Shown: piece by piece, positions 30,573 through 64,000 of the stretch
How positions within the stretch are numbered: the first letter of the stretch is position 1
How the letters are laid out: the number at the start of each line of letters is the position of its first letter
DNA from: an uncultured Gammaproteobacteria bacterium
GTDB taxonomy: Bacteria > Patescibacteriota > Microgenomatia > Levybacterales > UBA12049
DNA length: 64,000 nucleotides
Reading direction: 5' to 3'
Assembly (NCBI GenBank): GCA_965230895.1
Contig: OZ246394.1
Coordinates: 1,249,887 to 1,313,886, forward strand
Notes under the pieces: model-generated
Told to the model about the DNA's origin: nothing
Seen by the model: only the letters and a program-made list of their open reading frames with translations
Database searches by the model: none
Translations under genes and position numbers: made by a program

Positions 30573-30645
30573 TCCGCGATAGCTCAGCGGTAGAGCAGGA
30601 AGCTGTTAACTTCAAGGTCCTAGGTTCGAATCCTAGTCGCGGAGC
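30573..30645 (+). tRNA. tRNA-Asn (anticodon GUU)
   Basis: Cloverleaf folded by hand: acceptor stem UCCGCGA/UCGCGGA, D-arm GCUC/GAGC, anticodon loop CUGUUAA (GUU), T-arm CUAGG-UUCGAAU-CCUAG, discriminator G. CCA is not encoded. Confidence 0.85.
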
Positions 30646-41454: not shown

Positions 41455-41569
41455 ACTTCACTACGAAGTGGAGTTTTCTTCGTTTAAATCCCAATTATAT
41501 TTCCAGTCTGAGCTTGTCGAAGACGTAGTGAAACAGTTACCCTTCGACTTCGCTCAGGGATGATAATTC

Positions 41570-42211: not shown

Positions 42212-42275
42212 GGATCAATTATAGCAGTGGCGTTTGTAGGAAAGATGTATTCGTTAATATTTTTTTTATGTCATA

Positions 42276-43274: not shown

Positions 43275-43276
43275 TA

Positions 43277-44248: not shown

Positions 44249-44310
44249 ATCTTCATTCTGTACTTGTGCCGACAAAGTACCAACGCTCTCAGTACTCGCT
44301 AATTGTTTTT

Positions 44311-47300
44311 TTATTCTAGTGGTGTTGCTGAGGAGAGTTCTTGTGGTTTTTCTATTCCGATTTGCATGATCATTTCTGTCTCTGAGAACGCGATTCCAAC
44401 TGGAACTTCCTTTACAGCATTTGCTGGTGCTTCATCTGTGAGTGCACCTGAAACTCCCAAGAAATATTGTTTACCAACTTCCAAGTTGTTCAATACATTT
44501 GCTTTTCCTCCGATAATGATTGTGACATCTTTACCAGCTTGCGCATCGCTAGCAGCGATACCAACTACTACTGTCTTTGCTTCATCTGTTGCATCAGCAA
44601 TCATTACTTCTTTGGTAGCTGAGATGTAAAGCGCATCTCCTTTTTTAATATCTTCACCAGCCTTTGCTGTGATAGTGATAGCTCCAGCAAGATCGATATT
44701 ACCGCCCACTTTGATGTTTTCTTTGGTCTCAACATTCTTTGCGACGATATTGCCCTTAGTGATCATTGATCCATTCTTGTCGATGATCATCGCGCCGTTG
44801 AAGATATCAAGCAAGTTCGCGAGTGGTGACTTCTGCAAGAACAAGATACCATCTGTTGGTTCTTGGCCATTTTCGATTGGTGAGCCAAAGACACTAATTT
44901 CATTTTCTGTGACAGAGAGTGTACCGCCGACATTGATTCGATCATCAACTGTGAGGACTCCTGCGACATTTGTATCTTCGAGTGTTGTCTTGCCTGTCAC
45001 CATGATATCTCCTGAAATTGTTGTGTCACCGAGATATGATTTGCCGAATGACTTGAATGTATCTTGAACAGTTGCAGTGTACGCAGTAAATTCACCACTG
45101 ATTGTTGCTGTTGCAAAGATTGCATTATCAGTAGGGGATGCAGAATTTGTCGCGATCAACAAGTCAGGTGAAGTAAGATCTTCAGCTGATGGAGTTGGCT
45201 CTGCACTTTCACTTGCTGTTGGAGTAGCAGAAGGTGAACCGACGCCACTTGTTGGAGTAGGGGTAGCTGAGACATTAAGACTTGCGATCAAGTCATCAAG
45301 TCTCTGACTCAAACTAGCGAGATCTGCTGAATTTGATGCATTGTTTATCTCTGCAAGTTGTTGTTCCAAGTTAGCGAGCTGTGCATCAGTTGAAGCAACT
45401 TTGTCTCCAAGGATTGCTGCATTGCTTGCTGCTTCTTCAGCTTTTTGTTGTGCTGCTGCAAGTGCTGCAGCCTTAGATGCTTCTTGTGATTCGAGATTTG
45501 TAAGTCGACTATCAAGTTGGTTTGTCTTTTCTTCGAGACTGATTGCACTTGCTTGAAGTGAACTTATAGCAGTTGTCTTATTTGTGAGACTGTTGTTAAC
45601 AGCCAAGAACGCATCAGCCAATGATCCATTAACAACTTGTCCATCGATCTGCATGTTGGATGGGAGGACGACATCTCCAGTTTCGATTGTCTCTTCATCA
45701 GTAAGGATAGCCAATTTGTTACTTGGATCAGCAAATGTAATATTGACGAATGTCATAACCTTACCAACACCTGTTCCAGTGAAGTCTTCAAGTGCTTTAC
45801 CGATAACTTGTCCTGGCTTCGTTGCTTTCATAGCGATACCAGCAACTGATGAAGAAGTGAGGTAATCGCCCTTTTTGATCTGTCCATTTTCTGTACTCAC
45901 CTTGACTGGGACACGTCCAGCAAGAGCAACTGGTACAGCCTTGCCACCACTGATCATTTGTTCATTTTGTGATAATCTAAAGCCTGGTTTCTCGCTGTAA
46001 ACACCGATTATTGTAGTATCATATGTACCCTCTGATTTCTTAACGTTTTCATCAACATTTTGGTCGATAGAAAGGACGTCACCGGCTTGCAGTGAATCGT
46101 CTTGCGTACCATAATCTTCAGCCAAATCATAGTTGCCGCCGTTGGTTGTAAGTGTTCCAGACAATGTCGCGTTGCCAGTACTGTCGATAGAGAAGAGTTC
46201 TTGGTTTGCTGCATTCTTCCACATGAACTTGTTGGTGTCAATTCCTGTGTAGTCGGATGCCAACTTACTGATAACATCTCCATTGATTCCTTGGATTGAT
46301 CCTGAGAGCAAGTCGAGGAGAGGAGTCTTAACTGATCCTGAAGCTGTAACATCTCCGAATGCTGCTGAACTTGCAGTAAGATCTCCAAGAATATCGAAGT
46401 TACCATTATGAGTCCAAGCGCCGAGGCCAGAGTATTCCGGTACAGCATTTGGATCAGCATAAGCATTAACAACATATACCATGACAGTGGTTTTTCCACT
46501 ATTTGGATCCCAATCTTCCAGAGCTTTACCGACAATAAATCCTTTTTGTGTTGCCTTCATACCTTTACCTGATTCAGCAGATGTCGTAACGAAATCACCG
46601 GTTTGAATTGCAGGAGATGATGCAGAAATCTTTACAGGGACACGGCCATTCAAAGCAATTGGCATCGGTCGATCTGCTTCTTCAATATTATGTCCAATAC
46701 TATTAAAGTCACCTGCATTATCTGGATTTGAAACGATACCAATAGTACTGGATTGATATTCAGAGGTTGTTTTAACAAGTTTTGATACTCTTTCACCATC
46801 TTTAGTTGTGATGTATGTAGATCCTGGAGCTACGATATCACCTGTTTCGATATCATCATCAACTGAATACATTTCCATATAGTCGGCTGCAGGTGTTGAT
46901 GTACAATCTCGGATAAGGACATTGGTCGTTATACCATTTCCATTTTCTCCACAAAGTGCTTCGTCTGAACTGCCGCTTGCAAGGTCAATCATCAATGTGC
47001 CGTTAATATTAACAACACCGTTGGTATTGTTATCAATAGTTTCACCATTCTGGAGTTGGATATCGTTGGTGATATTTGTATTAGAGAACGTCAAACCTGT
47101 GCCTGTACTTGCACCAATTGTAACGTTACCAGCATTTGCTACGGTAAATACTGATGTACCTGAGTCTTTAAGTTCCATGAGTGGTCCAGTTCCAGCGTTG
47201 TTGACAACAAGTGCTGTTCCTGATGTCGTACCATTTACATTGACGATAGGTTGGGTAGTCGAACTACTCGCAACATCAAGTGCTGCTCCTGGAGTGTATG

Positions 47301-50300
47301 TATTGATACCCAATTGTCCTGTTTGTGTTGTACTAGTACTTCCCATTGCAGGATTAACGATATTCCAGTACAAACCATTGCCAATCGGAGTAATGTTATT
47401 GATACCGAAGTCAGACATAACTGTACCAGTCTTACCTACGACGAGACCCTTGATGTAATGGTTATTGTTTGATCCACCAGTACGAGCACCAAATCCGAAC
47501 TTCGTGTTGTCTGGATTGTACAAGTTACGAGTGTAAACGTCTCGGTAGTTGAGAACTGGTTGACCATCGATACGAACAACGATTTCGTTTCCTCGGATGA
47601 TGATATCTGCTTGCTTAAATTGGTTTGTATCGATAGTACCGTTTGGCAACACAGCTACAGCAAGTGGGTTACCAGCACCGCCACCAGTTGTGCATTGTCG
47701 ACCATCGGTAAATGGTCCGTATGTGATACCGATACAATCGTTACCTGAACCAGCACCGTATTCACTGAAGTAGATGATGTAACCCTGGGTCATGCCAGCA
47801 CCGTATTCAGTTGTAGGAACAGCATTTGCATAACTGTAGAACCAAGTACCATCAGCACCTGTACCACCACCAGCTTTGAAGTTAAATTGGATGTGTTCAT
47901 AAGGAAGCTGGTTGAAGTCCCAGTTGATTGAACCATTCTGGTTGTTTGCATTTGATGTAAGTCGAACTCCGTTACCACCACCGACGTATGATGCATTACC
48001 AGAAAGGGTAGGGACTGGATCTGCCTGGCTTCCAGTTGTTGGATCGTTAACACCGTCCCAGTAAGCGAGTGCAGCATTGGTGATAGCTGTATTAAGTGAT
48101 GCCAAACCGATATTACCTGATCCATCGACACCCAAGATACTTGTGAATGCACCAGTTGCTGTTTGTGCTGTTGTTACCTGACTGATTCTCAAACCTGAAA
48201 CATTGGTTGTACCAGAATTAATCGTAAGTGTGTTATCAAGTGATGTTGGTCCGTGCAATGTAAGTGCACCAGTGTTATTTCCGATTGTTGTTGCTGCAGT
48301 TCCAGTACTGTTGATGAGAGTTGTTCCAGTTACAGTAAGTCCGTTACTTGTTACGATTCCGTCACAAGTGAGGTTACCATTTGCATTGAATACTGTACAT
48401 CCAGTTGTACCAGTTCCACCAGCCAATTCGATGTTTCCAGTTGAAACGTTACCGATTCGGATATTTCCGGTTGTTCCAGCATTAATACTGAGTGGAGTAG
48501 CAGCAGTTGTTACGCCAAGAGCAGGAGCATTTCCAGCAAGCGAAATTGTGTTTGAGTTAATGGTGAATGTTCCTGAACCAAATGTGATTGCTCGGTTATT
48601 TGTTGTGTTAATACCAAGTGTTCCAGTTCCAGAAAGATCAAAGATTGGGTTGTTACCAGTTAAGTTAAATGCAGTAGATGCAAAGTTTGATGTTGCACCG
48701 GATACTGTCAAACCACCATTGATTGTTGTTGTACTTCCAGATGCTCCGATTGAAAGGGTAGAAGCGCCGCCACCAATGTTAAGTGTTGATGTTTGTACTG
48801 TGTTAAACAAGTTTACTGTTGTTCCAGAAGTTGCATACAAGTCACCGCCGTTAACGATCAAGTCGCCAGTCATTGTTGTATTACCAGTTCCAAGGAATGA
48901 GTATGATGGGTTAGTTGAACCGTTACCGAATGAGATGTTTTCTGTACCATTTGTTGTGTTGATGTTAATGTAATTGTTTGCACCTTCCTGGATATCAAGA
49001 GCATCTGTATTGTTATCAACCAAGTTTGCAGTGATATCATTTCCAGCACCATTTGCTGTTAATGTAACAGTTGTTCCAGAAGCAGTGATTGCATCTCCAC
49101 CGTCTCCGATGTTTGCGATACCATTTGCAGTGAGTGTACCAGCAACGGTTAATCCATTATTTACTGTTGTTGTGCCAGTTGCTGCACCGAGTGAGACAGT
49201 TGTAGCAGCTCCGCCGATGTTCAATGTAGTAGCAGTTGTGTTGAACAAGTTCGCTGTTGCTTTTGCAGCAGTTAACGTTGATTGAGTAGTTCCATCGATT
49301 GTCAAACCACTTGATGCTGTTACTGCGCCGGTCAATGTAGAAATACCATCAACAGTTAATGTACCGTTTGCCTGTATGTTTCCAGCGTTACTGATACTCA
49401 CACCAGTTGACCCATAACCTCCGCCAACATTTACTGTATCAAATCCTGCAGTTGCACTTGTTGCTGCAATACTTGTTGCGTTAGGGAAGTTGATTGTTGT
49501 TCCTCGGATATTTCCAGTCGCATTTGTTGCGCCCAAAGTGTATGTTGTTGCAGCTCCACCGATATTCAATGTCGTTGCTCCAGTGTTGAAGAGGGAAGCA
49601 GTACCAGCAGTTGTTGTAAGATCTCCACCATTAAGAGCTGCATCTCCACCACTTGTGATGTCACCATTTGCACCGTTGACTGAGAAGTTTGTACCAGCGA
49701 TATCATTTGCACCAATTGAAAGAGCTGTTCCGATATCTGCATTACTGACATCAAGCGCAGTTGTAACATTGCCACTTGGTGTGCCAACGATTCTCAAAGC
49801 GATTGGCAATGCTCGATCGGTGTCTTGGTTTTGGATCAAAACGAGTTGTGTAGGATCTGCTGTCCCAGCGCCATTTGCCCGTGAGATTTCAATGCCACCT
49901 GTTGAACCAGTTGCCGTTGTAACTGTGAACTTAGAATCAGCAGTAGTGTCAGCAAGAGTGAATGCGATATCTTTGTTGTTTGTTGTTGTGATTGCATTGC
50001 CATTGTCATATGCACTTTGGAGACTTTGTGATGCAGCTGCACAAGTAACAACTTGGTTTGAACCATTTGTACAAAGTCCAGTTCCAGTAGCAGTTGTCAA
50101 ACCATTCAATGTTAAGAATGAATCAGCATCTGAAGTGATAGTAACTCCATTTGTTCCTGATGGTGAGAAGTTAGATTGACCATTTGCTGTGAATGTCTGA
50201 CCTGATGCAACTGTCAAACTACTGTTAAATGTTGCTGTTCCTCCAGCTGCACCGATTGCCATTGTTGTAGCAGCGCCACCGATGTTTACTGTTGTTGCGT

Positions 50301-53300
50301 TTGCATTAACCAAATTGAATGTTCCGGCAGTTGTTGTAATATCACCACCATTTACAGCAACGTCTCCAGTAGCAGTGACATTACCAGTTAATGTTGAAGT
50401 TCCATCGACAGTTAAGGTCCCATTTGCTTGGATATTTCCAGTGTTACTGACACTAACTCCAGTTGATCCGTATCCACCACCGATTGAGAGGGAATCAGCA
50501 TTGAATGCTGCTGTCAAAGCAGAGATTGTTGTTGCATTGTTGAAGTTAATTGTTGTTCCTCGGAGGTTTCCAGTCGCGTTGGTTGCACCGATTGTGTATG
50601 CAGTTGCAGCGCCACCCATGTTCAATGTCGTTGCATTTGTATTGAATACTGTTGCCGTACCAGTTCCTGATGTTGTGATGTCGCTTCCATTGACAGCCAA
50701 GTCACCTGATGTTGTGATATTACCAGTTGATCCAGTGATAGAGAAGTTAGTTGCTGATAAGTTGCTTGCACCAAGAGCGATACCAGTTGTGATACTTGCA
50801 TCAGAGACATCAAGTCCAGTTGTAACGCCACCACCACCAGATGATGTAACCTTCAAACCTGTTGGAACAGCTCGATTTGTGTCAGCATTGTCGATCAAGA
50901 TCAATTGTGCAGGATCTGAAGTGCCAGCACCATTAGCTCGTGAGAATGTAGAGAATCCAGTTGATCCATCAGCAGTTGTAACAGCGAAGTTAGAATCAGT
51001 TGCAGTGTCAGCGAGTGTGAATCCGATGTTTCGAGCATCTGTTGTTGTGATAGTGTTACCGTTGTTGTATGCAGTTTGCAAGTTAAGTGAAGATGCATTA
51101 CATGTACCAACATTATTTGATCCATCAAGACAGAGTGTAGTACCAGCAACTGATTGCAAACCAGTCAAGATCAATGTTGAATCAGCATCAGTTGCGAAAG
51201 TAATATCATTTGTACTATTTGGTGAGAATGAAACTGCACCAGCTGTTGTGAATGTACTGTTGTTTCCGACTGTCAAAGCATTTCGGACAGTTGTTGTACC
51301 TGTTGTTGCACCGAGTGTCATTGTTGTTGCAGCTCCACCAACATTCACTGTTGTTGCGGTTGTATTAAACAAGTTCGCTGTTGTCTTTGATGAGATCAAA
51401 TCTGATGTCGATGCACCATTGATTGTAACTCCATTTGATGCTGTAACTGCACCTGTCAATGTAGAAGTTCCGTCAACTGTGAGGTTGCCATTTGCTTGGA
51501 CATCTCCAGCACTTGAAACTGAAACTCCAGTTGAACCATAACCGCCGCCGATTGCAGTTGATGAGATGTTTAATGCTGCTGAATTTGCAGTGATTGATGT
51601 TGCGTTAGGGAAGTTGATTGTTGTACCTCGGATATTTTGTGTTGCATTGGTTGCACCGGTTGTGATACTTGTTGCTGCACTTCCCATTGTTACTGTTGTT
51701 GCATTTGTATCAAAGAGTGAGCCAGTAGTTGCAGTTGTTGAAAGTGTACCGCCATTAACTGCGACGTTTCCAGCAGTTGTGATGTTACCATTCGCTCCTG
51801 AGATAGAGAAGTTACTTGCTGAGACATCATTTGCACCGAGTGAAAGTGCTGTAACGATAGATGCATCTGAGAGATCAAGTGCAGTTGTTACACCAGCGCC
51901 ACCAGTTGATCCGATCTTGAGTCCTGTTGGCAAGATTCGATCAGCATCAGCATTGTCGATCAAGACGAGTTGTGATGGATCAGCAGATCCTGCGCCATTT
52001 GCTCTTGCGAAGACTGTTCCGCCAGTTGAACCATCAGCAGTTGTGATGTTGAAGTTAGCATCAGTTGCAGTGTCAGCCAATGTGAATCCGATGTTTCTGT
52101 TATTTGTTGTAGTGATTGTATTTCCATTGTCATAAGCAGCTTGCAAACTTGCATTTGCTGTCAAATCACATTTAACAACTTGATTTGAACCGTTAACACA
52201 AAGTGTTGGTTGTGCACCTGATGCTGTTGTCAAACCACTGATTGTTAAGAATGAATCAGAATCTGTTGCGATTGTTACACCATTTGTACTGTTAGGGGAG
52301 AATGATACTGCGCCAGTTGTTGTGAGCGCACTATTGTTAGCAACAGTCAAAGCATTTCGGACAGTTGTTGTACCAGTAGTTGCACCGAGTGAAACAGTAG
52401 TTGCTGCGTTACCAATATTCAATGTCGTTGCGTTTGTATTGAATAATGTTGCTGTTGCGAATGTTGTTGTAAGGTCTCCACCATTAAGAGCCAAGTCACC
52501 ACTTGAAGTGATGTTACCAGTCAATGTTGATGCTCCGTCAACTGTCAATGTACCATTTGCTTGGATGTTGCCAGCGTTACTGACACTAACTCCAGTTGAT
52601 CCATATCCGCCACCGATTGTTGCTGCATCGATTGTGAGAGTTGCGCCACTTGCATTCAATGCTGTTGCATTTGGAAGACTGACAGTTTGATTATTAATTG
52701 TTGCTGTACCACTTGCTCCACCGATGTTCAATGTTGTAGCAGCTCCAGCGAAGTTAACAGTCGTTGCAGTTGCATCAACCAAGTTGAATGTTGTCTGGTT
52801 TGTTGAGATAGTTCCACCATTTGCAGCGATTGAACCATTAGTTGAAAGGTTACCGTTACTACCAGTGAGTGAGAAGTTGGTTGCTGTGATGTCATTTGCG
52901 CCAAGTGAAAGTGCATTGACGATTTCAGCATCTGAGAGATCAAGTGCGTTTGTGATTCCACCAGCTGCAGCTTGGACTTTAATACCTGCTGCAACTGCTC
53001 GGTTTGTATCCAAGTTATCAACCAAGATCAATTGGTTTGGATCTGCAGTTCCAGCGCCATTTGCTCGAGTGAATGCTGAGTAACCAGTTGATCCATCAGC
53101 TGTTGTGATAGTGAAGTTACTATCAGTTGTTGTGTCAGCAAGTGTAAATCCGATGTCTCGTGCATCAGTTGTAGCAATTGTGTTTCCAGCATTATATGCA
53201 GCTTGGAGAGAGAATGATGCAGCTGAACATGTACCAACGTTATTTGATCCATCAACACAGAGAGTTGATCCGGCAACTGATTGCAAACCAGTTAATACCA

Positions 53301-56300: not shown

Positions 56301-59300
56301 CTGTTGTTGTGATTGTGTTACCACCAGCATATGCGTTTTGGAGACTGAGTGTTGCATTTGCACATTGGACAACATTGTTTCCTCCGTCGAGACAGAGTGG
56401 AGTACCGGTTGTTGTTCCCAAACCATTCAAGATTATTGTTGAATCAGTATCAGTTGTGAAGGTTATGTCATTTGTACTGTCTGGAGCAAATGTACTTGCA
56501 CCATTTGCTGTGAATGATTGACCAGTTGCGACAGTTGCTCCAGCATTGAATGTTGCCAAGCCAGTTGCAGTTGTTGTTCCGTCGATCAAAAGGTCATTCT
56601 TAATGTTTGTTGTACCAGTTGCAGCACCCAAGTTAAGAGCAGTAGCAGCGCCGCCAACATTCAATGTTGTAACGCCAGTGTTCAAGAGATTAAATGTGCC
56701 AGCAGATGAAGTTAAGTCTCCACCGTTAATTGCGACATCACCAGTTGCAGTTACATTTCCGGTTAATGTAGAAGTGCCATCGATTGTTAAGTTGCCATTT
56801 GCTTGGATGTTTCCAGCATTAGAGAGAGTTGCTCCAGTTGATCCATATCCACCACCAACGTTCAATGTATCAAATCCAGCAGTTGCTGAAGTTCCATCGA
56901 TAGTTGTTGCATTAGGGAAGTTGATAGTTGTTCCTCGGATGTTTCCAGTTGCTGATGTTGCACCCAAAGTGTATGTCGTTGCAGCGCCACCGATGTTAAG
57001 CGTTGTAGCATTTGTATTGAACAAGTTAGCTGTTGTTTGGTTTGTAGCCAATGTTCCAGAATTTGCATTGATGTTGCCAGTTGCTGTAATTGTCCCTGAT
57101 GTTGTGATGTTTCCGTTACTGCCAGTGATAGAGAAGTTCGTAGCAGTGACATCATTTGCACCGAGTGATAATGCATTAACAATTTCAGGATCTGAGAGAT
57201 CAAGGGCATTTGTGATACCACCAGCAGCTGATTGGATTCGGATTCCAGCAGCGACAGCTCGATCTGTATCCAAGTTATCAACCAAGATCAATTGTGCAGG
57301 GTCTGAAGTTCCAGCGCCATTTGCTCGTGCGAAGATACTTGTACCAGTTGAACCATCAGCTGTTGTAACTGTGAAGTTAGAATCAGTTGCAGTATTTGTC
57401 AATGTGAATGCGATGTCTCGAGCATCTGTTGTGTCGATTGTATTGCCACCAACATATGCATTTTGGAGATTAAGTGTTGCATTTGCACATTGGACAACAT
57501 TATTTGATCCGTCGAGACAAAGTGCTGTACCAGATGCTGTTCCAAGTCCAGTTAAGATGAATGTTGAATCAGCATCAGTTGCAAAGGTAATGTCATTTGT
57601 ACCGTTTGGTGTGAATGTACTTGTACCGTTTGCTGTCAATGTTTGGCCTGATGGGATAGTTGCGCCACCATTGAATGTTGCCAAACCAGTTGCAGTCAAA
57701 GCATTATTGACTGTTGTTGTTCCAGAACCAGCACCAAGTGAAACAGTTGTTGCAGCGCCACCGATATTCAAAGTAGTAGCAGTTCCGTTAAAGAGGGAAG
57801 CAGTTGTTTGGTTGGTTGTAAGATCTCCACCATTGACCGCTACGTCTGCACCAGCTGTTACATTTCCTGTAAGTGTTGAAACTCCATCGATTGTCAAAGT
57901 TCCATTTGCTTGGATGTTTCCAGTATTTGAAAGGGTAGTGCCAGTTGAACCGTATCCGCCACCGATTTGAATACTATCAAATGTTGCAGCAGCTTGAGGA
58001 GCAGTGAATGACGTAGCGTTAGCAAAATTGATAGTAGCGTTTCGGATGTTTGCAGTACCAGTAGTTGCACCAAGTGTGAGTGAAGTAGCAGCGCCACCAA
58101 TATTCAATGTTGTAGCAGTTGTATTGAACAAGTTACCAGTTGTCTGTGATGTAGCAATTGTTCCTGAATTAGCATTGATGTTGCCAGTGAATGTGCTCGC
58201 ACCAGTTCCTAAGAATGAGTAAGTTGGATTGGTTGTTGTGTTACCGAATGAGATGTTTTCAGCACCGTCAGTTGTGTTGACGTTAATGTAATTGTTTGTA
58301 CCTTGTTGGATATCAAGAGCATTTGCATTGTTATCAACCATGTTGACGTTCAAGTTGTTATTCAATGTCGTTGTACCTGTACCAGCACCGATGTTTACAT
58401 CTGTAGCAGCGCCACCAACGTTAAGTGTTGTAGCATTTGTGTTTGCGATGTTCATTGTACTTGCGCTTGTTGTGATGTCGCCACCATTTACAGCAACATC
58501 ACCAGCAGCTGTTACATTGCCAGTTAGTGTAGAAGTACCATCAATTGTGAGATCTCCGTTTGCTGAGATGTTTCCATTGTTTGCGATAGTAGCACCAGTT
58601 GATCCATAACCTCCACCGACATTCACTGCATCAACATTTGCAGTAGCTCCAGTTGCATTGATTGCAGTTGCATTTGGAAGTGAGAGCGTAGCATTGTTAA
58701 TTGTTGCTGTACCACTGTTTGCACCGATGTTCACAGTTGTAGCAGCTCCACCAACGTTCAATGTTGTAGCATTTGCATTGAAGACATTTGCAGTTCCAGC
58801 AGTTGTTGTAAGTGAACCGCCGTTAACTGCAACGTTTCCAGCAGTTGTGATGTTTCCGTTACTACCAGTGATAGAGAAGTTAGTCGCAGTTACATCATTT
58901 GCTCCGAGAGATAATGCGTTAACGATTTCAGGATCTGAAAGATCAAGAGCATTCGTGATTCCACCAGCTGCAGCTTGGATCTTGATGCCAGCAGCAACAG
59001 CTCGGTCTGTGTCCAAGTTATCAACCAAGATCAATTGTGCAGGGTCTGAAGTTCCAGCGCCATTTGCTCGAGTGAATGTTGAGTAGCCAGTTGAACCATC
59101 AGCTGTTGTAACTGAGAAATTACTGTCAGTTGTTGTGTTAGCCAACGTGAATGCGATGTCTCGAGCATCTGTTGTATTGATTGTATTTCCACCATTGTAT
59201 GCAGATTGCAATGTTGTTGTGTTCGCTGAACACTTTGTAACGTTGTTACTACCATCAACACAGAGTTGTGAACCAGCTGTTACTGGGGTTGTAAGGCCTG

Positions 59301-62300
59301 AGATGTTCAAGAATGAATCAGTATCAGTTGTGATGTTGATGTCATTAGTGCCATCAGGTGAGAAGTTAGATTGGCCATTTGCATTGAATGTTTGACCAGT
59401 TGCGACAGTTGCACCAGCATTTGCAGTGATCAAGCCAGTAGCAGTCAGCGCATTGTTAACAGTTGTTGTGCCAGTACTTGCACCGAGTGAAACAGTTGTT
59501 GCAGCGTTACCGATATTCAATGTAGTTGCAGTTGCATTGAAGAGGGAAGCAGTTGTTTGGTTTGTAGTGATGTCTCCGCCATTAACTGCGATGTCTCCAC
59601 CTGCTGTTACATTACCAGTTAATGTTGATATACCATCAACAGTTAGTGTACCGTTTGCTTGGATGTTTCCAGTGTTACTGATTGAGACTCCAGTTGAACC
59701 GTATCCACCGCCGATTGCTGTTGATGCAAATGTCGCAGCAGCATTTGGAGCAGTGAATGATGTAGCATTACCGAAGTTAACTGTTGCATTGTTGATGTTT
59801 GCAGTACCAGTAGTTGCACCGATATTTACTGATGTAGCAGCACCTCCAACGTTCAATGTTGTTGCATTTGCATTGAAGACATTTGCAGTTCCAGCAGTTG
59901 TTGTAAGTGAACCACCGTTAACTGCAACGTTTCCTGCTGTTGTGATGTTACCATTTGAACCATCGATAGAGAAGTTAGTAGCAGTGACATTATTTGCACC
60001 GAGTGAGAGCGCATTCACGATTTCAGCGTCAGAGAGATCGATTGCATTGGTGATTGTTCCAGCAGCTGATTGGATCTTAAGACCTGCTGCGAGTGTTTCA
60101 TTTGCGTCATTATTTTCGATCAAGACCAATTGTCCAGCAGGAGCAGCATTTGAGCCATCAGCCAAACCGAAGTATGAATAGCCAGTTGATCCAGCTGCTG
60201 TTGTGACTGTGAAGTTAGCATCAGTTGTTGTGTTATCAAGTGTGAAGTCGATATCTCGGCCATCAGTTGTAACGATTTCATTGCCACCATCATATGCACC
60301 TTGCAACGTAACTGCTGCAGTTGAACAGATAACGATGTTGTTACTACCATCAATACAAATGTTATCTCCAGCAGCAGTTGTAAGACCTGAAACATTCAAG
60401 AATGAATCAGCATCAGTTGTGATGTTGATGTCATTTGTCCCGTCAGGAGAGAATGTTGATTGACCATTTGCTGAGAATGTCTGACCAGTCGCAACAGTTG
60501 CACCAGCATTAAATGTTGCGAGACCAGTTGATGTTGTTGTTCCATCGATAAGCAAATTGTTGTTAACATTTGTAGTTCCAGAACCAGCACCGATGTTAAC
60601 TGAAGTACCAGCACCAGCGATGTTAACTGTAGTTGCAGTTGCATTGAAGAGGGAAGCAGTTGTCTGACTTGTTGTGATGTCGCCTCCGTTAACTGCGAGA
60701 TCAGCACCAGCAGTGACGTTTCCAGTCAATGTTGAAGTACCATCAACAGTTAATGTGCCGTTTGCTTGGATGTTTCCACCATTTGAAAGGGTAGTACCAG
60801 TTGAACCATAACCGCCACCAATTTGGATTGAATCAAATGTAGCAGCAGCTTGAGGAGCAGTAAATGATGTTGCATTCGCAAAGTTGATTGTTGCATTTCG
60901 GATGTTAGCTGTACCAGTTGTTGCGCCGATATTAAGAGTTGCAGCAGCACCACCAACATTAAGCGTAGTAGCAGTTGTGTTGAACAAGTTACCAGTTGTT
61001 TGTGTTGTAGCCAATGTTCCAGAGTTAGCATTGATGTTTCCAGTAGCAGTGATAGTTCCACCAGTTGAAACGTTTCCGTTAGAACCGGTTACTGAGAAGT
61101 TAGTTCCAGTGATATCATTTGCACCGAATGAGAGAGCAGTACCAATTTCAGCATCACTTACATCAAGCGCTGTTGTGATACCGCCAGCAGCTGATTGGAT
61201 TCGGATTCCAGCTGCGATTGCTTCATTGGTATCGTTATTTTCAATCAATACCAATTGATTTGCAGGAGCAGCATTTGAGCCATCAGCCAAACCGAAGTAT
61301 GAGTATCCAGTTGAACCAGCAGCTGTAGTAACAGTGAAGTTACTGTCAGTAGCTGTATCAGCCAAAGTAAATCCGATGTTTCGGTTGTTTGTTGTTGTGA
61401 TAGTGTTTCCAGCATCGTATGCAGATTGCAATGTTCCAGCAGTTGTTGTACAAACAACGACATTGTTACTGCCATCGAGACAGAGGTTATCGCCAGTACC
61501 AGTTCCCAAACCGTTCAATGTGAAGAATGAATCAGCATCAGTGTTGAATGTTATACCGTTTGTGCTGTCAGGGGAGAAGGTTGACTGGCCGTTTGCTGTG
61601 AATGTTTCGCCAGTTGCGACAGTTGCGCCGCCATTAAGTGTAGCCAAATCATCAACTGTCAAAGCGTTGTTCACTGTTGTTGTTCCTGATCCAGCACCGA
61701 TATTAACTGAAGTTGCAGCTCCGGCTACATTTACTGTTGTAGCATTTGTATTAAAGACATTTGCAGTTCCAGCTGTTGTTGTAACATCTCCACCATTTAC
61801 AGCGACATCACCAGCAGTTGTAACATCTCCAGTTAATGTAGAAGTACCATCAACTGTGAGGTTGCCATTTGCTTGGATGTTACCAGTGTTACTGATACTA
61901 ACTCCAGTTGAACCGTAACCGCCACCGATTGTTGTACTATCAAGTGATGCAGCTGCGAGACTTGCATCTATTGTTGTAGCGTTAGGGAAGTTGATAGTTG
62001 TTCCTCGGATAGTTCCAGTTGCTGAAGTTCCGCCGATTGTGTAAGCAGTGGTTGCGCCACCAACATTGAGTGTCGTTACTCCAGTGTTGAGGAGATTGAA
62101 TGTACCAGCAGAGGATGTTAAGTCACCACCGTTTACAGCAATGTCACCAGTAGTTGTTACGTTGCCAGTTAATGTTGAAGTTCCATCGATAACCAAATTA
62201 CCATTTGCTGAGATGTTACCGTTATTTGCAAGTGTTGTACCAGTAGAACCATAACCGCCACCAACTGCGATTGAATCAAATGTCGCAGCTGCATTTGGAG

Positions 62301-64000
62301 CGGTGAATGAAGTTGCATTAGCGAAGTTGATTGTCGCGTTGTTGATGTTTGCAGTACCAGTTGTCGCGCCTATGTTCACTGAAGTAGCAGCACCACCAAC
62401 ATTCAATGTAGTTGCGTTTGTATTGAAGACATTTGCAGTTGCATTTGTTGTTGAGAGTGTACCGCCATTTGCAGCGACATTTCCTGATGTTGTGATGTTG
62501 CCAGTTGCAGTGATTGTACCGTTTGTTGAAACGTTTCCGTTAGAACCGATTACTGAGAAGTTTGTTCCTGTGATGTCATTTGCACCAAATGCCAATGCAG
62601 TTCCGATTTCAGCATCTGAGACATCAATTGCAGTAGTAATTCCGCCAGCAGCTGATTGGATTCGAAGGCCAGTTGCCAATGCTTCATTAGCGTCTGCGTT
62701 TTCGATCATTACTAATTGAGCTGGGTTCGTTGTATTTGTACCATCAGCCAAACCGAAGTATGAAGATCCAGTTGATCCTGCATTTGTGATAACTGAGAAG
62801 TTCGCATCAGTTGTTGTATTTTCGAGAGTGAATGAGATGTCTCGTCCGTCTGTTGAATTGATAGTGTTTCCGCCGTTGTATGCAGATTGCAATGTGATTG
62901 AAGCAGCAGAACATTTAACGATGTTGTCTGAACCATCAATACAAATGGTACTTCCAGTTGCAGTTTGGAGACCTGAAACGTTCAAGAATGAATCAGCATC
63001 TGTTTGGATGTTTACGTCATTTGTTCCTGATGGAGCAAATGTTGCTGAACCACTTGCATTGAATGCTTGTCCAGATGAAACTGTTGCGCCGCCATTGAAT
63101 GTAGACAAACCTGTTGCTGTTGTCGTCCCACCGATTGTGACATTATTATTAATTGCAGTTGTTCCAGTATTTGCACCGATATTCAATGTTGTTGCAGCAC
63201 CTGCAAAGTTAACTGTAGTAGCAGTTGTGTTGAAGAGGTTAGTTGTTGTTTGGTTGGTTGCGATTGTGCCACCGTTTGCATTGATTGTTCCACCAGTTGT
63301 TACGTTACCCGTTAATGTAGAAGTTCCATCAATTGTGAGACTTCCATTTGATTGGATATCTCCATTAGCTGAAAGGGTAGTGCCAGTTGAACCATAACCA
63401 CCACCGATTGCATTGGATGCAAATGTTGCAGCAGCATTTGGAGCAGTAAATGAAGTTGCATTCGCAAAGTTGATTGTAGAGTTGTTGATGTTTGCAGTGC
63501 CAGTTGCTGCACCGATGTTAACAGTTGTAGCAGCACCACCAACATTCAAAGTTGTAGCGTTTGTATTAAAGACATTTCCAGTTGATTGTGTTGTTGCCAA
63601 TGTTCCTGAATTTGCATTGATATTTCCTGTTGCTGTAATTGTTCCAGCAGTTGCAACATTACCACTCGCACCAGTGACTGAGAAGTTAGTTCCAGTGATA
63701 TCATTTGCACCGAATGAAAGTGCAGTACCGATTTCAGCATCGCTGACATCGATTGCAGTAGTAATACCGCCAGCAGCTGATTGGATTCGGAGACCAGTTG
63801 CCAATGCTTCATCAGTGTCCAAGTTTTCAACCAAAACTAATTGGTTTGGTGAAGTTGTATTTGTACCATTTGCCAAACCAAAGTATGAGTATCCAGTTGA
63901 ACCAGCAGCTGATGTTACTGAGAAGTTTGCATCAGTTGTTGTATTTGTCAAAGTGAATGCGATATCTCGGCCATCTGTTGTGTTAATTGTATTGCCGCCA
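44311..64000 (-). CDS. Giant (>6,560 aa, 5' end beyond the window) Thr/Gly/Asn/Ala-rich tandem-repeat surface or adhesin-like protein with a non-repetitive C-terminal region
   Basis: A single uninterrupted minus-strand ORF of 19.7 kb runs off the window end. My translation of 63952..64000 continues the repeat (GGNTINTTDGRDIAFTLTNTT), so there is no start in the window. There are at least 16 GGGYGSTG motifs, about 12 L-C-x-DGSNNV-x-x-C motifs, and a unit period of about 330-480 aa built from ~110-aa sub-repeats. The C-terminal ~1,400 aa holds a jelly-roll-like segment, two paralogous ~135-aa modules, a coiled coil and a Pro/Thr linker. Confidence 0.85.
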   Translation of the reverse strand, partial: GGNTINTTDGRDIAFTLTNTTTDANFSVTSAAGSTGYSYFGLANGTNTTSPNQLVLVENLDTDEALATGLRIQSAAGGITTAIDVSDAEIGTALSFGANDITGTNFSVTGASGNVATAGTITATGNINANSGTLATTQSTGNVFNTNATTLNVGGAATTVNIGAATGTANINNSTINFANATSFTAPNAAATFASNAIGGGYGSTGTTLSANGDIQSNGSLTIDGTSTLTGNVTTGGTINANGGTIATNQTTTNLFNTTATTVNFAGAATTLNIGANTGTTAINNNVTIGGTTTATGLSTFNGGATVSSGQAFNASGSATFAPSGTNDVNIQTDADSFLNVSGLQTATGSTICIDGSDNIVKCSAASITLQSAYNGGNTINSTDGRDISFTLENTTTDANFSVITNAGSTGSSYFGLADGTNTTNPAQLVMIENADANEALATGLRIQSAAGGITTAIDVSDAEIGTALAFGANDITGTNFSVIGSNGNVSTNGTITATGNITTSGNVAANGGTLSTTNATANVFNTNATTLNVGGAATSVNIGATTGTANINNATINFANATSFTAPNAAATFDSIAVGGGYGSTGTTLANNGNISANGNLVIDGTSTLTGNVTTTGDIAVNGGDLTSSAGTFNLLNTGVTTLNVGGATTAYTIGGTSATGTIRGTTINFPNATTIDASLAAASLDSTTIGGGYGSTGVSISNTGNIQANGNLTVDGTSTLTGDVTTAGDVAVNGGDVTTTAGTANVFNTNATTVNVAGAATSVNIGAGSGTTTVNNALTVDDLATLNGGATVATGETFTANGQSTFSPDSTNGITFNTDADSFFTLNGLGTGTGDNLCLDGSNNVVVCTTTAGTLQSAYDAGNTITTTNNRNIGFTLADTATDSNFTVTTAAGSTGYSYFGLADGSNAAPANQLVLIENNDTNEAIAAGIRIQSAAGGITTALDVSDAEIGTALSFGANDITGTNFSVTGSNGNVSTGGTITATGNINANSGTLATTQTTGNLFNTTATTLNVGGAAATLNIGATTGTANIRNATINFANATSFTAPQAAATFDSIQIGGGYGSTGTTLSNGGNIQANGTLTVDGTSTLTGNVTAGADLAVNGGDITTSQTTASLFNATATTVNIAGAGTSVNIGAGSGTTNVNNNLLIDGTTTSTGLATFNAGATVATGQTFSANGQSTFSPDGTNDINITTDADSFLNVSGLTTAAGDNICIDGSNNIVICSTAAVTLQGAYDGGNEIVTTDGRDIDFTLDNTTTDANFTVTTAAGSTGYSYFGLADGSNAAPAGQLVLIENNDANETLAAGLKIQSAAGTITNAIDLSDAEIVNALSLGANNVTATNFSIDGSNGNITTAGNVAVNGGSLTTTAGTANVFNANATTLNVGGAATSVNIGATTGTANINNATVNFGNATSFTAPNAAATFASTAIGGGYGSTGVSISNTGNIQANGTLTVDGISTLTGNVTAGGDIAVNGGDITTNQTTASLFNATATTLNIGNAATTVSLGASTGTTTVNNALTATGLITANAGATVATGQTFNANGQSNFSPDGTNDINITTDTDSFLNISGLTTPVTAGSQLCVDGSNNVTKCSANTTTLQSAYNGGNTINTTDARDIAFTLANTTTDSNFSVTTADGSTGYSTFTRANGAGTSDPAQLILVDNLDTDRAVAAGIKIQAAAGGITNALDLSDPEIVNALSLGANDVTATNFSITGSNGNITTAGNVAVNGGSLTTTAGTANVFNANATTLNVGGAATTVNIGANSGTATINNATLSLPNATAINATGATANVDAVNVGGGYGSTGATIANNGNISANGDLTIDGTSTLTGNVTAAGDVAVNGGDITTSASTMNIANTNATTLNVGGAATDVNIGAGTGTTTLNNNLNVNMVDNNANALDIQQGTNNYINVNTTDGAENISFGNTTTNPTYSFLGTGASTFTGNINANSGTIATSQTTGNLFNTTATTLNIGGAATSLTLGATTGTANIRNATINFANATSFTAPQAAATFDSIQIGGGYGSTGTTLSNTGNIQANGTLTIDGVSTLTGNVTAGADVAVNGGDLTTNQTTASLFNGTATTLNIGGAATTVSLGAGSGTTTVNNALTATGLATFNGGATIPSGQTLTANGTSTFTPNGTNDITFATDADSTFILTGLGTASGTALCLDGSNNVVQCANATLNLQNAYVGGNTIDTTDARDIAFTLTNTATDSNFTVTTADGSTGTSIFARANGAGTSDPAQLILVDNLDTDRAVAAGIRIQSAAGGITNALDLSDPEIVNALSLGANDVTATNFSITGSNGNITTSGTITATGNINANSGTLATNQTTANLFNTNATTLNIGGAATTYTLGATSATGNIRGTTINFPNATTIDGTSATAGFDTLNVGGGYGSTGATLSNAGNIQANGNLTIDGTSTLTGNVTATGDVAINGGDLTSSAGTFNLLNTGVTTLNVGGAATALNLGAATGTTNIKNDLLIDGTTTATGLATFNAGATVATGQSFTANGASTFAPDSTNDITFTTDTDSTIILNGLGTTTGTPLCLDGGNNVVQCANATLSLQNAYAGGNTITTTDARDIAFNLANTSTDSNFTVTTAAGSTGYSYFGLANGTNTTPPAQLVMVENLDTNEAVPAGIKIQSAAGGITTALDVSDAEIGTALSFGANDITGTNFSVTGSNGNVSTSGTIGATGNITTAGDVAVNGGDVTSSATTFNLLNSGVTTLNIGGAANTYTIGGTGATGNIRGTTINFPNATTIDGTSATAGFDVVNAGGGYGSTGVTLGSTGNIQANGTLTIDGTSTLTGNVTTAADVAVNGGDLTTNQTTASLFNGTATTLNIGGAATTLNLGANTGTATINNATISLPNATVINATGATANIDTLNVGGGYGSTGMTVSNAGNIQTNGTLTVDSTSTLTGNVTAASDIAVNGGDLTTTAGTFNLINGTATTLNIGGAATTVALGAGTGITTLNNNLVANVVDGNANALDIQEGSNNYINLNTTNGAENLAFGNTITNPTFSFLGTGASTFSGNINANSGTINTNQTTANLFNTNATTLNVGGAATTLNIGATTGTANIRNATINFANATSFTAPQAAATFDSIQIGGGYGSSGTTITNAGDINMNGNLGVDGAATVSGTLTATGNINANSGTINTTQTTANLFNTTATTLNVGGAATALNLGATTGTTTVRNALTVGNNSTFTTAGAVSFSPNSTNDVTINTDADSTLVLTGLQSLTGTALCIDGSNNVGTCNSASQGLQAAYNNGNTITTTNNRDISFTLADTATDSNFSVTTADNSSSYSVFARANGAGTNDPTQLVLIDNLDADRILPVGLKIGSSGGAGVTTALDLSDASIVNALSLGANDVSATNFSITGSNGNITTAGDIAVNGGDLTTNQTTASLFNTTATTLNVGGAATTLNIGATTGTANIRNATINFANATSFTAPQAAATFDSVAIGGGYGSTGATISNAGNIQANGTLTVDGTSTLTGNVTATGDIALNGGDLTTTSGTATLFNTGATTLNVGGAATTVSLGAATGTTTVNNNLSIGNNSSLTSTGAVSFTPASTSDITINTDADSTLVLTGLQSVAGSTLCVDGSNNVGTCSAASFSLQAAYNAGNTIATTDARDIGFTLADTTTDSNFTITTADGSTGYSAFTRANGAGTADPNQLILVDNLDTNRAVAAGIKVQAAAGGITNALDLSDAEIVNALSLGANDITATNFSLTGSNGNLSTNGSIAANGGTISTNQTTFNLVDATATTVNFAGAATTLNIGGASGTATINNQTVSLPNATALNASGATLTIDAATIGGGYGSTGVSVSNAGNIQANGTLTVDGASTLTGNITSSGDLALNGGDLTTTFATATLFNTNATTLNIGNAATTVSLGATTGTTTVRNALTVANNSALTTTGAVSFSPNSTNGVTIATDSDSFLTISGLTTASGAQPTLCVNGSNQVVKCDLTANASLQAAYDNGNTITTTNNRNIGFTLADTATDANFNITTADGSTGGTVFARANGAGSADPSQLVLIDNADADRILPTGLKIGSTGGAGVTTALDLSDASIVTALSLGANDVSASNFSISGANGNITTAGNVAVNGGTLSTTATTGSLFDTNATTVTMGSAATSITTGATNATQNIRGTTINFPNATSITANSAALNISSTAIGGGYGSTGVSVSSAGDVQANGNLTVDGTSTLTGAVTASNGVTINGASTSDLISSKTTANLFNTTATTVNVGGAATTMTLGATTGTTTVRNALTVGNNSTFTTAGAVSFSPNSTNDITFATDADSTLILTGLQSVAGTTLCLDGSNNVGTCNASSLNLQTAYNNGNTITTTDARNIGFTLADTATDSNFAVTTADGSTGFSTFSRANGAGTSDPAQLILIDNADTNRAVPTGLKVTSSGGGGVTTGLDVSDASITTGIALGASNLSATNFSITGSTGNITTSGDLAVNGSDITTSGTGTATVFNTNATTLNMGGAATAYTIGATNATGNLRGTTINFNNATTISALTAAFNADSLSIGGGYGSTGVSVSNTGNIQANGTLTVDGTSTLTGNVTATGDVAVNGGDITTTAGTFNLVNANATTVNIGGAATTMAIGAAGGTATFNSSLTVASGQTFTANGQSNFSPSGTNGVTITSDADSFLTLNGLTTATGTGLCTNGSNQVVTCAAASQSLQSAYDNGNAITTTNNKDIAFTLADTTADSKFTVTTATGSTGGIEISRANGAGTADPTQLVLIQNQDTDRALPIALRIVGTPSGNVTTALDVSNADIGTALSIGANDIAGTNFSVNGANGDITSGGDAALNGGDLTTTAGTASLFNTGATTLNIGGAATTYTLGATNATGNIRGTTINFPNATSIAATSATAGFDTVNVGGGYGSTGVSISNAGNIQANGTLTVDGISTLTGAVTASSGLTIDGTTQSTLTAAKATANLFNTTATTLNIGGAATTVSLGAATGTTTVNNGLTVAGTLTANGIANIGDGGDAITASGTTVTLTANGAGNDITANLVDNNTDALDIQEGANNYININTTNGTENISFGNGSTNPSYSFLGTGNTTMTGDLIVNGGDLYATSGTTVNLFNTVQTSTLNIGGGASTLSIGASGSTTTINGGLTVSGATSNFASTAFNLTGNNPIFDLSGTGTLGINTTNNRAITFGSGTFTINSNTISLAGNAPALGVTTAATPLSINAGTTGNIRIGNVSTGNIELAGGTGTTGCTVFNANGNLTCDGIVTSNGLTVTGTTLINSTGTAATTIGNNTGALTLHGPTSLDNTLTINSGTTNVSGLRISQVTTAQTATGAFTSILGVDGSGNIGLASLNTAITNAALAYWDGVNDPTTGSQADPVPTLSGNASYVGGGNGVRLTSNANNQNGSINWDFNQLPYEHIQFNFKAGGGTGADGTWFYSYANAVPTTEYGAGMTQGYIIYFSEYGAGSGNDCIGITYGPFTDGRQCTTGGGAGNPLAVAVLPNGTIDTNQFKQADIIIRGNEIVVRIDGQPVLNYRDVYTRNLYNPDNTKFGFGARTGGSNNNHYIKGLVVGKTGTVMSDFGINNITPIGNGLYWNIVNPAMGSTSTTQTGQLGINTYTPGAALDVASSSTTQPIVNVNGTTSGTALVVNNAGTGPLMELKDSGTSVFTVANAGNVTIGASTGTGLTFSNTNITNDIQLQNGETIDNNTNGVVNINGTLMIDLASGSSDEALCGENGNGITTNVLIRDCTSTPAADYMEMYSVDDDIETGDIVAPGSTYITTKDGERVSKLVKTTSEYQSSTIGIVSNPDNAGDFNSIGHNIEEADRPMPIALNGRVPVKISASSPAIQTGDFVTTSAESGKGMKATQKGFIVGKALEDWDPNSGKTTVMVYVVNAYADPNAVPEYSGLGAWTHNGNFDILGDLTASSAAFGDVTASGSVKTPLLDLLSGSIQGINGDVISKLASDYTGIDTNKFMWKNAANQELFSIDSTGNATLSGTLTTNGGNYDLAEDYGTQDDSLQAGDVLSIDQNVDENVKKSEGTYDTTIIGVYSEKPGFRLSQNEQMISGGKAVPVALAGRVPVKVSTENGQIKKGDYLTSSSVAGIAMKATKPGQVIGKALEDFTGTGVGKVMTFVNITFADPSNKLAILTDEETIETGDVVLPSNMQIDGQVVNGSLADAFLAVNNSLTNKTTAISSLQASAISLEEKTNQLDSRLTNLESQEASKAAALAAAQQKAEEAASNAAILGDKVASTDAQLANLEQQLAEINNASNSADLASLSQRLDDLIASLNVSATPTPTSGVGSPSATPTASESAEPTPSAEDLTSPDLLIATNSASPTDNAIFATATISGEFTAYTATVQDTFKSFGKSYLGDTTISGDIMVTGKTTLEDTNVAGVLTVDDRINVGGTLSVTENEISVFGSPIENGQEPTDGILFLQKSPLANLLDIFNGAMIIDKNGSMITKGNIVAKNVETKENIKVGGNIDLAGAITITAKAGEDIKKGDALYISATKEVMIADATDEAKTVVVGIAASDAQAGKDVTIIIGGKANVLNNLEVGKQYFLGVSGALTDEAPANAVKEVPVGIAFSETEMIMQIGIEKPQELSSATPLE
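48800..64000 (-). repeat. In-frame hierarchical tandem DNA repeats (about 1.0-1.4 kb units) inside the giant gene
   Basis: Near-identical nucleotide blocks recur (for example ...ggttgaaccgtatccgccaccgat..., ...gcagcgccaccgatattcaatgt...). The mirror-image plus-strand pseudo-ORFs (VVAAPP.FNVVA...) repeat at the same period. Boundaries are approximate. Confidence 0.7.

Follow-up and report, generated by a model that had tools for sequence, protein, structure and literature searches.

The last third of the 64,000-nucleotide stretch of contig OZ246394.1 (assembly GCA_965230895.1) analysed in this work, hereafter the window, is occupied by one minus-strand gene encoding a protein of at least 6,562 residues. 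This giant protein is most likely a very long surface filament that attaches to other cells. We propose, with modest confidence for the mechanism taken as a whole, that it is a fibrous cell-surface protein of a bacterium belonging to the candidate phyla radiation (CPR), built from phage tail-fibre parts. Its last ~1,440 residues form a distinct multi-domain region and not a repeat fibre. The initial annotation of the stretch had read this part as more fibre, but a lectin-like domain, two domains of the phage phi29 gp12 type, a coiled coil and a cement-like tail were found in its last ~1,300 residues, of which the final ~860 resemble a cassette for assembly.

The open reading frame (ORF) spans 44311..63999 on the minus strand, with 6,562 codons followed by a stop codon at 44311-44313, and its 5' end lies beyond the window edge. 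Its translation gives 6,562 residues with one terminal stop, and the frame is open to the edge. The TTG at 63951, given as the start in the ORF list, corresponds to residue 17, a Leu inside the first copy of a repeat module (X, described below). Since this module reaches the window edge, the TTG is an internal codon and the true start is outside the window, as the initial annotation had supposed. The protein is composed mainly of T (18.3%), G (13.1%), A (13.0%), N (11.4%) and S (7.9%), which agrees with the bias noted earlier. No LPXTG-like motif was found in a scan of the 6,562 amino acids (aa) encoded in the window for [LN]Px[TSA][GNAS], and a search for hydrophobic stretches across them found none, the top 19-residue Kyte-Doolittle mean being 1.31; the earlier remark that both an LPXTG motif and a C-terminal transmembrane helix are lacking is correct. 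Unlike the sortase-anchored (LPXTG) Gram-positive adhesins, the protein does not have the C-terminal motif, hydrophobic helix and charged tail.

Domains B1 (aa 5706-5860; 46420..46884, minus strand) and B2 (aa 5958-6100; 45700..46128, minus strand) are paralogous. The AlphaFold2 model of B2 reached a predicted local distance difference test (pLDDT) score of ~90, and the top structural match of the B-domain model was the C-terminal auto-chaperone of gp12, the pre-neck appendage or tailspike protein of phi29 (MEROPS G2, PF11962, PDB 3gqh and 6qz9), which is the closest structural relative of these domains. In the BFVD viral library, the model matched phage proteins with E values down to 2e-13. 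Annotations of these proteins included "preneck appendage protein" and "intramolecular chaperone auto-processing domain". The Pfam family PF11962 (Peptidase_G2, IMC autoproteolytic cleavage domain) was matched by 8 of the 26 aligned family members, the best with E 4.4e-7. The alignment of these 26 B domains presents invariant columns D, E, G, S, L, G, P, G, D, G and A, and D15 and E18 are invariant in 26/26; the D-Y-M-E of B1 places its D and E at these positions. The B-domain profile puts the invariant D/E pair (D-x-A-E) on D692 and E695 of gp12, within the segment TWS-DFAEYF, and the crystallised cleavage product (chain 3gqh_A) starts exactly at gp12 Asp692, in the numbering of the 854-aa 6qz9_A. 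This Asp/Glu pair of gp12 is reported as the catalytic one by Xiang et al. 2009 and MEROPS. In the giant protein, the predicted cuts would fall just before D5706 in B1 (codon 46882-46884) and just before D5958 in B2 (DLAEDY; codon 46126-46128). B1 and B2 are accordingly annotated here as putative gp12-type intramolecular chaperone domains with predicted autocleavage sites. In phi29, the C-terminal domain of gp12 is an intramolecular chaperone that is needed for folding of the trimer and is then cleaved off (PMC3357383, PMC4690869).

Upstream of the chaperone pair, a transition segment (aa 5121-5255; 48235..48639, minus strand), which is beta-rich, non-repetitive and has one Cys pair (5201/5212), connects the repeat region to domain A, and it is partly conserved in three relatives (P0004, P0010 and P0029). 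Domain A (aa 5256-5585, core ~5300-5540; 47245..48234, minus strand) is predicted, with moderate confidence, to have a concanavalin-A-like lectin fold of the LamG type. Its match to the Pfam family 3keto-disac_hyd (PF06439) was below the cut-off (E 2.4e-4; 21.6 bits, cut-off 26.8), and 7 of 10 domain A homologues matched PF18483, Lectin_L-type_dom, a legume-lectin beta-barrel, the best with E 3.6e-6. The profile of the domain gave weak matches in PDB to legume lectin, sex-hormone-binding globulin (SHBG) and the neurexin LamG domain (E 0.03-0.4). A block of domain A is common to nine relatives, with 39-68% identity and 43 invariant columns. Domain A is predicted to bind the ligand, close to where the mature fibre has its tip. 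It is followed by a beta-rich linker (aa 5586-5705; 46885..47244, minus strand), conserved in P0013, P0020, P0021 and L006, which ends at the predicted first autocleavage site, TSTPAA|DYMEMY.

Downstream of B2, a coiled coil of ~114 residues (aa 6127-6240; 45280..45621, minus strand) was modelled by AlphaFold2 as one long helix. The helix corresponds to model residues 213-326 (DSSP segments 213-308 and 312-326), with a pLDDT mostly of ~70-93 that drops near the end, and 73% of its a/d positions are hydrophobic in one heptad phase. Pfam and NCBIfam gave coiled-coil-type matches in the C-terminal region, those of NCBIfam being coiled-coil noise only, and a comparison of this region with PDB sequences gave no match. 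A linker rich in Pro, Ser and Thr (aa 6241-6290; 45130..45279, minus strand; pLDDT < 50) leads to domain C (aa 6291-6435; 44695..45129, minus strand), which is beta-rich and conserved, has no assigned fold, and aligns with P0001, P0010, P0025, P0027, L006 and L007. The protein ends with domain D (aa 6436-6562; 44314..44694, minus strand), a capsid-cement-like domain that does not have the D-x-A-E motif. Domain D matched Pfam Phage_cement_2 below the cut-off (E 1.8e-4; 22.2 bits, cut-off 24), PHROG 122 "head decoration" with E 0.019, and the B domain only weakly by hhalign (E 1e-3, probability 20%). It is conserved in L006, L007, L008, L016, L021 and P0195.

The repeat region (aa 1-5120; 48640..63999, minus strand) was described through module maps, motif positions and DNA repeat families, the modules being mapped with hidden Markov models built from the giant protein's own sequence. 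Five modules were distinguished: X (115 aa, 12 copies), which begins with LQxAY and whose first copy is cut at the window edge; G (~108 aa, 16 copies), which is full and begins with GGGYGS[ST]G; g (~70-95 aa, 15 copies), a partial G; H (67 aa, 11 copies), which carries a Cys pair at its end, forming a Cys hairpin; and Q (62 aa, 3 copies), with ALDIQxGxNNYIN. These modules are organized in 12 super-units, the canonical one being X-g-G-H with 343-375 aa, while the longer ones have an extra G or a G-Q-g insertion. The motif GGGYGSTG occurs exactly 15 times and GGGYGS[ST]G 16 times, and there are 11 Cys pairs of the LCxDGSNNVxxC type in the region. The earlier count, which had at least 15 units and gave every one of them both GGGYGSTG and a Cys pair, is replaced here by one of 12 super-units with 16 motifs and only 11 Cys pairs.

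The repeat unit did not match any recognised family in Pfam and NCBIfam. The sole PHROGs match to the unit was PHROG 4527, "short tail fiber protein", which matches the G module with E 1e-5, and a comparison of the repeat-unit profile with PDB sequences gave only chance-level matches. AlphaFold2 modelled one unit, with 21 aligned units and homologues as input, as an extended chain with a mean pLDDT of 75 (80-89 in the G modules), in which DSSP found nearly no secondary structure except a beta-hairpin made by the Cys pair. A monomer model that is fairly confident but extended resembles intertwined oligomeric fibres that are modelled singly, and it may be of the same kind here.

Relatives of the giant protein were found at two levels. 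A locus scan with a six-sequence B-domain alignment, counting one genome per species, revealed at least 536 genome loci with the B-domain cassette, mostly in Patescibacteria/CPR. The best locus among the matches listed belongs to a metagenome-assembled genome (MAG) of Candidatus Levyibacteriota, with B2 79% identical and an ORF 55% identical over aa 5624-6551 of the giant protein (~930 aa). Other loci are from Amesbacteria, Daviesbacteria, Collierbacteria, Woesebacteria, Shapirobacteria, Saccharibacteria, Parcubacteria, Paceibacteria and Moraniibacteriota. The protein matches carry the source names Patescibacteria, Berkelbacteria, Pacebacteria and Uhrbacteria, and a member of the RpoD cluster bears the name Levyibacteriota. 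Many third-party MAGs among the loci are labelled "Gammaproteobacteria"; these labels seem doubtful for genomes such as a 0.9-Mb chromosome. The bearer of the giant gene is probably a member of the CPR/Patescibacteria, within Levyibacteriota, to judge from these sequence relationships, and the CPR lineage given in the initial annotation is borne out by the best locus listed. The genome had also been called small, and its size is uncertain: the exact LeuRS, RpoD and ComM-like proteins of the window are recorded on an NCBI contig of 1,610,123 bp, a length that would place the genome among the large ones of CPR bacteria, with ~1.2% of it taken up by the giant gene.

At the protein level, the matches listed by the homology searches were at most ~1.75 times as long as the query (2,431 aa with 1,395 aa searched and 659 aa with 377 aa searched), a range that does not extend to full-length giants. 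Among the matches listed, proteins of 800-2,400 aa from sources named Patescibacteria or Berkelbacteria share the C-terminal modules. More than 30 relatives were found in all, and nearly every one of them has its B domain ~100-500 aa before the C-terminus. In a set of 1.84 billion proteins, the repeat-unit profile matched 1,879 cluster representatives (E <= 1e-3); no protein among the best 150 of these matches is longer than 4,611 aa, which makes the giant protein the longest family member seen. Fragmentation is common among such genes in databases. At the N-terminus of many full-length relatives there is a Sec signal or one membrane helix, and an "INFQGRL..." domain often comes next. Two smaller relatives end with Peptidase_S74 (PF13884; 55-58 bits, cut-off 22): P0155 (897 aa), which begins with a signal peptide and whose units share 48-50% identity with those of the giant protein, and P0040 (620 aa), which has related units. 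Since related units precede both S74 and G2-like domains, repeats of this type go together with two trimer-specific chaperones that are unrelated to each other. The relatives P0002 and P0004 adjoin ATP synthase genes in conserved synteny, and the surrounding 10 kb contain no phage genes. In both genomes, a conserved run of five or six unannotated genes of ~240-390 aa separates the fibre gene from the ATP synthase operon (L004 4640-9893, upstream of P0004, and L005 3122-9753, upstream of P0002), which may be accessory or paralogous surface proteins.

In the mechanism that we propose, the protein would be exported by the Sec system, and an N-terminal signal or anchor beyond the window, of the kind present in the relatives, would hold the chain in the membrane. 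The last ~860 residues (B1, B2, the coiled coil, C and D) would emerge last and align three chains. The repeat region of ~5,100 residues would then zip from the C- to the N-terminus into an intertwined, probably homotrimeric, beta-structured fibre, in which each super-unit may be stapled by one disulphide hairpin. The chaperone cassette of 605-857 residues would be released by autoproteolysis at D5706 and/or D5958, where the site alignment places the cut immediately ahead of the invariant Asp in D-x-A/M-E. After the cleavage, the lectin-like domain (aa ~5300-5540) would be found ~120 residues from the new C-terminus and could bind a glycan on the host or partner cell. The fibres of phages T4 and T5 have dimensions of ~0.05 nm per residue. 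At that scale the giant fibre would be ~300 nm long, which is comparable to the cell itself. The earlier suggestion of a host-attachment or surface structure, taken here with an N-terminal anchor, is plausible in the light of the Sec signals and membrane helices of the relatives.

Some points weigh against this proposal. The sequence match of the B profile to gp12 is weak (E 0.04), and the C-terminal 1,595 aa of the giant protein have no PF11962 match at E <= 1, so that its own B domains are not filed as plain members of that family. Their top Pfam match was instead the minor capsid family XM1_gp53, at a sub-threshold score (23.3 bits for B2 alone, cut-off 27). A Foldseek search of the repeat unit against PDB gave no matching solved structure, and AlphaFold2 provided no usable model of domains C and D, the confidence being low. 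Export and anchoring are predicted from the relatives, the true N-terminus being outside the window, whose last 60 bases had no exact match among the genome contigs searched. In phi29, ATP is required for the chaperone to be released, and outside the cell there is no ATP to draw on. Finally, the presence of two tandem chaperone domains, plus C and D, is not accounted for by the proposal.

Other explanations were considered for the repeats and for the nature of the gene. The initial annotation saw a beta-helix or beta-solenoid fibre in the repeats, and they might form a monomeric adhesin of this kind, like filamentous haemagglutinin or the autotransporter passengers, with the C-terminal domains merely as a folding cap. 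The T/N/G/A-rich composition and the alternation of hydrophobic residues would agree with it, and some fragment homologues are annotated at source as "beta strand repeat-containing protein" or "bactofilin family". However, AlphaFold2 usually builds intrachain strands in monomeric solenoids, and none are present in the unit model despite a pLDDT of 75-89 in the G modules. The autocorrelation of hydrophobic residues and of Gly is weak throughout (<=0.18), with the clearest lags at 112 and 862 aa and no short solenoid-type period, and the units occur together with two different trimer-specific chaperone families, S74, which they precede in the smaller relatives, and G2-like. Thus the repeats are probably not a monomeric beta-solenoid, as far as the model indicates, and we consider such an adhesin improbable. 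It is equally improbable, in our judgement, that the gene encodes the tail fibre of a prophage, a phage-like particle or a tailocin and not a cell-surface protein. A phage origin of this kind would fit the "short tail fiber" match of the G module, the frequency of the B domain among phage proteins, and the relatives with Peptidase_S74 or Mtd_N. One relative, P0167, ends in a B domain, and its N-terminus is typical of phage fibres. The side upstream of the gene is beyond the window, and a remnant of an IS1595-type transposase is present at 38497-38976. On the other hand, the other 44 kb of the window are all cellular (PGK, LeuRS, DnaG, RpoD, a histidine kinase and beta-lactamase-like genes), the relatives that share the C-terminal cassette begin with Sec signals or membrane anchors, P0002 and P0004 stand in chromosomal synteny, and the GC content at third codon positions (GC3) of the gene is like that of the host genes.

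The C-terminal domains could also act without cleavage, B and D forming a cement-like trimeric knob that would serve as a non-covalent anchor to the cell's own wall or S-layer, or as a receptor-binding tip. The Pfam matches to Phage_cement_2 and XM1_gp53 point in this direction, as do the conservation of domain D at the extreme C-terminus without D-x-A-E and the lack of any other anchor motif in the giant protein. We regard an uncleaved knob as unlikely: the top structural match of the B domain is the gp12 auto-chaperone and not a decoration protein, the D and E that are invariant in all B domains fall on the gp12 cleavage site and would not be needed by a purely structural knob, and the relatives are already anchored at the N-terminus. 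As for the gene itself, the long ORF might be a collapsed or chimeric assembly of repeats, or a decaying pseudogene, an explanation that we find hardly credible. In its favour, three independent short-read contigs from Logan (SRR14271359, SRR14271365 and SRR14271366) all end within the gene, at 44851, 44863 and 45981, and many database relatives are fragments on contigs of 1-3 kb. However, the frame extends over 19.7 kb without interruption, the module order is regular, and the short-read contigs are 100% identical to the window over 40213-45981. The repeat copies are 60-85% identical in DNA, with every spacing a multiple of 3, and the longest exact internal repeat has 59 nt; therefore, reads can place the repeats. 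The comparison of seven aligned units gave 0.50-0.61 for the proportion of synonymous differences (pS) and 0.17-0.28 for that of non-synonymous differences (pN), with a dN/dS of ~0.2-0.35. Diverged repeats under purifying selection indicate a real gene and not a collapsed assembly. Tandem Repeats Finder did not detect the repeats of the gene because their period exceeds 500 nt.

The giant gene is genuine and selected, and it is probably native. The initial annotation had claimed a giant and repetitive gene, and this is supported. The GC content of the gene is ~0.43, against 0.38, and the excess sits solely at codon position 2 (0.55 versus 0.35), while GC3 is 0.28 against 0.31 in the neighbours. 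Horizontal transfer, which the higher GC had suggested, was rejected on this basis. Codon usage over 44314-63999 is strongly biased in relation to the neighbouring genes (ATC for Ile, 0.80 versus 0.24; AAC for Asn, 0.50 versus 0.28), and G-ending codons are avoided. The strong codon bias with a similar GC3 could be consistent with a native, efficiently translated gene, among other possible causes, and it suggests translational selection acting on a very long gene.

With the fibrous surface protein as the preferred reading, the giant protein can be compared with known systems. The phi29 gp12 is a virion protein of 854 aa with one chaperone domain at its very end, whereas the giant protein has a tandem pair followed by ~460 residues (coiled coil, C and D); it is also cellular, probably exported and of at least 6,562 aa, and an ATP-dependent release, as in gp12, could not operate there. 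The S74 fibres, such as the K1F endosialidase, T5 pb1 and the bacterial "tail fiber domain-containing proteins", follow the same logic (PMC4690869): behind the tip that binds the receptor, their C-terminus carries a trimerisation chaperone that cleaves itself. However, the S74 fold is helical and tentacled, while the fold of the chaperone domains of the giant protein is beta-stranded and gp12-like, and a search for PF13884 in the repeat unit and the C-terminal 1,595 aa gave no match. In the same C-terminal 1,595 aa, Pfam and NCBIfam gave no match to a YadA-type beta-barrel anchor, which is found in the trimeric autotransporter adhesins. The decoration or cement proteins (DUF2190 Phage_cement_2, XM1 gp53 and the capsid-stabilising proteins of HFTV1 and TW1) have the small beta fold common to B and D, with weak Pfam matches, but they are stand-alone capsid binders of ~130-160 aa, whereas in the giant protein the fold is embedded at the end of the fibre.

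Giant proteins associated with cell contact have been described in other bacteria. Vampirococcus lugosii, with a reduced CPR genome, encodes giant membrane-associated surface proteins of 1,392-4,163 aa, which were proposed to act in host recognition and attachment (PMC8080830). These were described with WD40, PKD, DUF11, integrin and fibronectin-type domains, phage-fibre repeats or auto-chaperones not being reported for them, and the protein studied here is at least 1.6 times longer. For the giant proteins of Omnitrophota, SecA-like domains were described, and antiparallel beta-helices with flanking alpha helices (bioRxiv 10.1101/2023.11.21.568195). Together with the grappling-hook protein GhpA of Aureispira (PDB 9flp, 5,898 aa), they represent giant bacterial proteins tied to a predatory or cell-contact life and are often fragmented in metagenomes. 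The protein of the window has no meaningful homology to either of them, the match to GhpA being at chance level (E 0.04 over 43 residues). Giant CPR surface proteins were already known; in the literature searched, neither the G2 domain nor an intramolecular chaperone was mentioned in the same paper as CPR, Patescibacteria or Saccharibacteria.

The recognition and holding of hosts by ultrasmall CPR bacteria are largely unexplained beyond type IV pili and a few adhesins of cultivated Saccharibacteria. The giant protein is a concrete and experimentally tractable candidate for this attachment, since its predicted binding domain, its maturation sites (before D5706 and D5958) and its assembly cassette can be expressed and mutated separately. 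The C-terminal cassette is, in addition, a marker of the family in at least 536 species-level genomes. Phage fibre-assembly chemistry would operate here in a cellular, probably exported protein of ~8 times the size of its phage counterpart, which bears on the folding of very long beta-structured fibres and on gene flow between phages and CPR bacteria. A broader idea, which we put forward as tentative and rather doubtful, is that CPR bacteria adopted a phage tail-fibre kit (repeats, lectin tip and self-cleaving chaperones of the gp12 or S74 type) for cell-long, anchored, trimeric host-capture fibres, fused in some relatives to a cytoplasmic DNA-binding domain of the MerR type. If this were true, the MerR-fused fibre would be a contact sensor wired straight to transcription, parallel to the eukaryotic MyRF, a membrane transcription factor that is released by a phage-type chaperone-cleavage domain. 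MyRF is a cellular precedent for a domain of this type (PMC8326128).

Several giant relatives, of up to 4,486 aa, open with a MerR/HTH_17 DNA-binding domain (P0010, P0014, P0176, P0214 and P0272). The match of P0176 to MerR has 42.6 bits (cut-off 28.2), and P0010, P0014, P0214 and P0272 have a B domain near the C-terminus. This arrangement suggests putative membrane-tethered transcription factors with a giant extracellular fibre, recalling MyRF. Another observation in the relatives is an RVT_1 reverse-transcriptase gene (L005 23459-24343) located ~6 kb downstream of the 2,421-aa P0002, and some other relatives have Mtd_N domains; some members of the family may be targets of diversity-generating retroelements. 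For the giant gene this Mtd-like idea was rejected: no DNA similarity was found between window positions 1-44310 and the gene that could represent a template repeat, and no ORF with reverse-transcriptase motifs is present in the window.

The remaining 44 kb of the window correspond to an ordinary bacterial chromosome, with genes for the RNase P protein, YidC, PGK, LeuRS, RuvABC, DnaG, RpoD, a histidine kinase, Wzy-type proteins and two beta-lactamase-like proteins. The latter belong to the Beta-lactamase2 family and are tandem paralogues (42276-43274, plus strand, E 2e-32; and 43277-44248, plus strand, E 1e-35) that converge on the 3' end of the giant gene; in the 62-bp convergent gap (44249-44310), no intrinsic terminator or hairpin was found. 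A peptidase S51 gene (41570-42211, minus strand) precedes this pair. Two genes encode Wzy_C membrane proteins of the O-antigen ligase/polymerase type, one fused to C-terminal TPR repeats (39139-41454, plus strand) and the other at 3354-4787 (plus strand), and these may be related to surface glycans or protein glycosylation near the fibre gene. Of an IS1595-type transposase, the ORF at 38497-38976 (minus strand, 159 aa) carries the zinc-ribbon domain alone (E 1.7e-8); this ORF, located ~5 kb from the giant gene, is probably what remains of a transposase. A SET-domain protein of the lysine methyltransferase type (245 aa; 37558-38295, minus strand) was identified with E 2.9e-19, and a DUF4012 protein of 920 aa (6005-8767, plus strand) with E 6.6e-30. 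A tRNA gene at 30573-30644 (plus strand; 67 bits) was the only Rfam match in the 64 kb.

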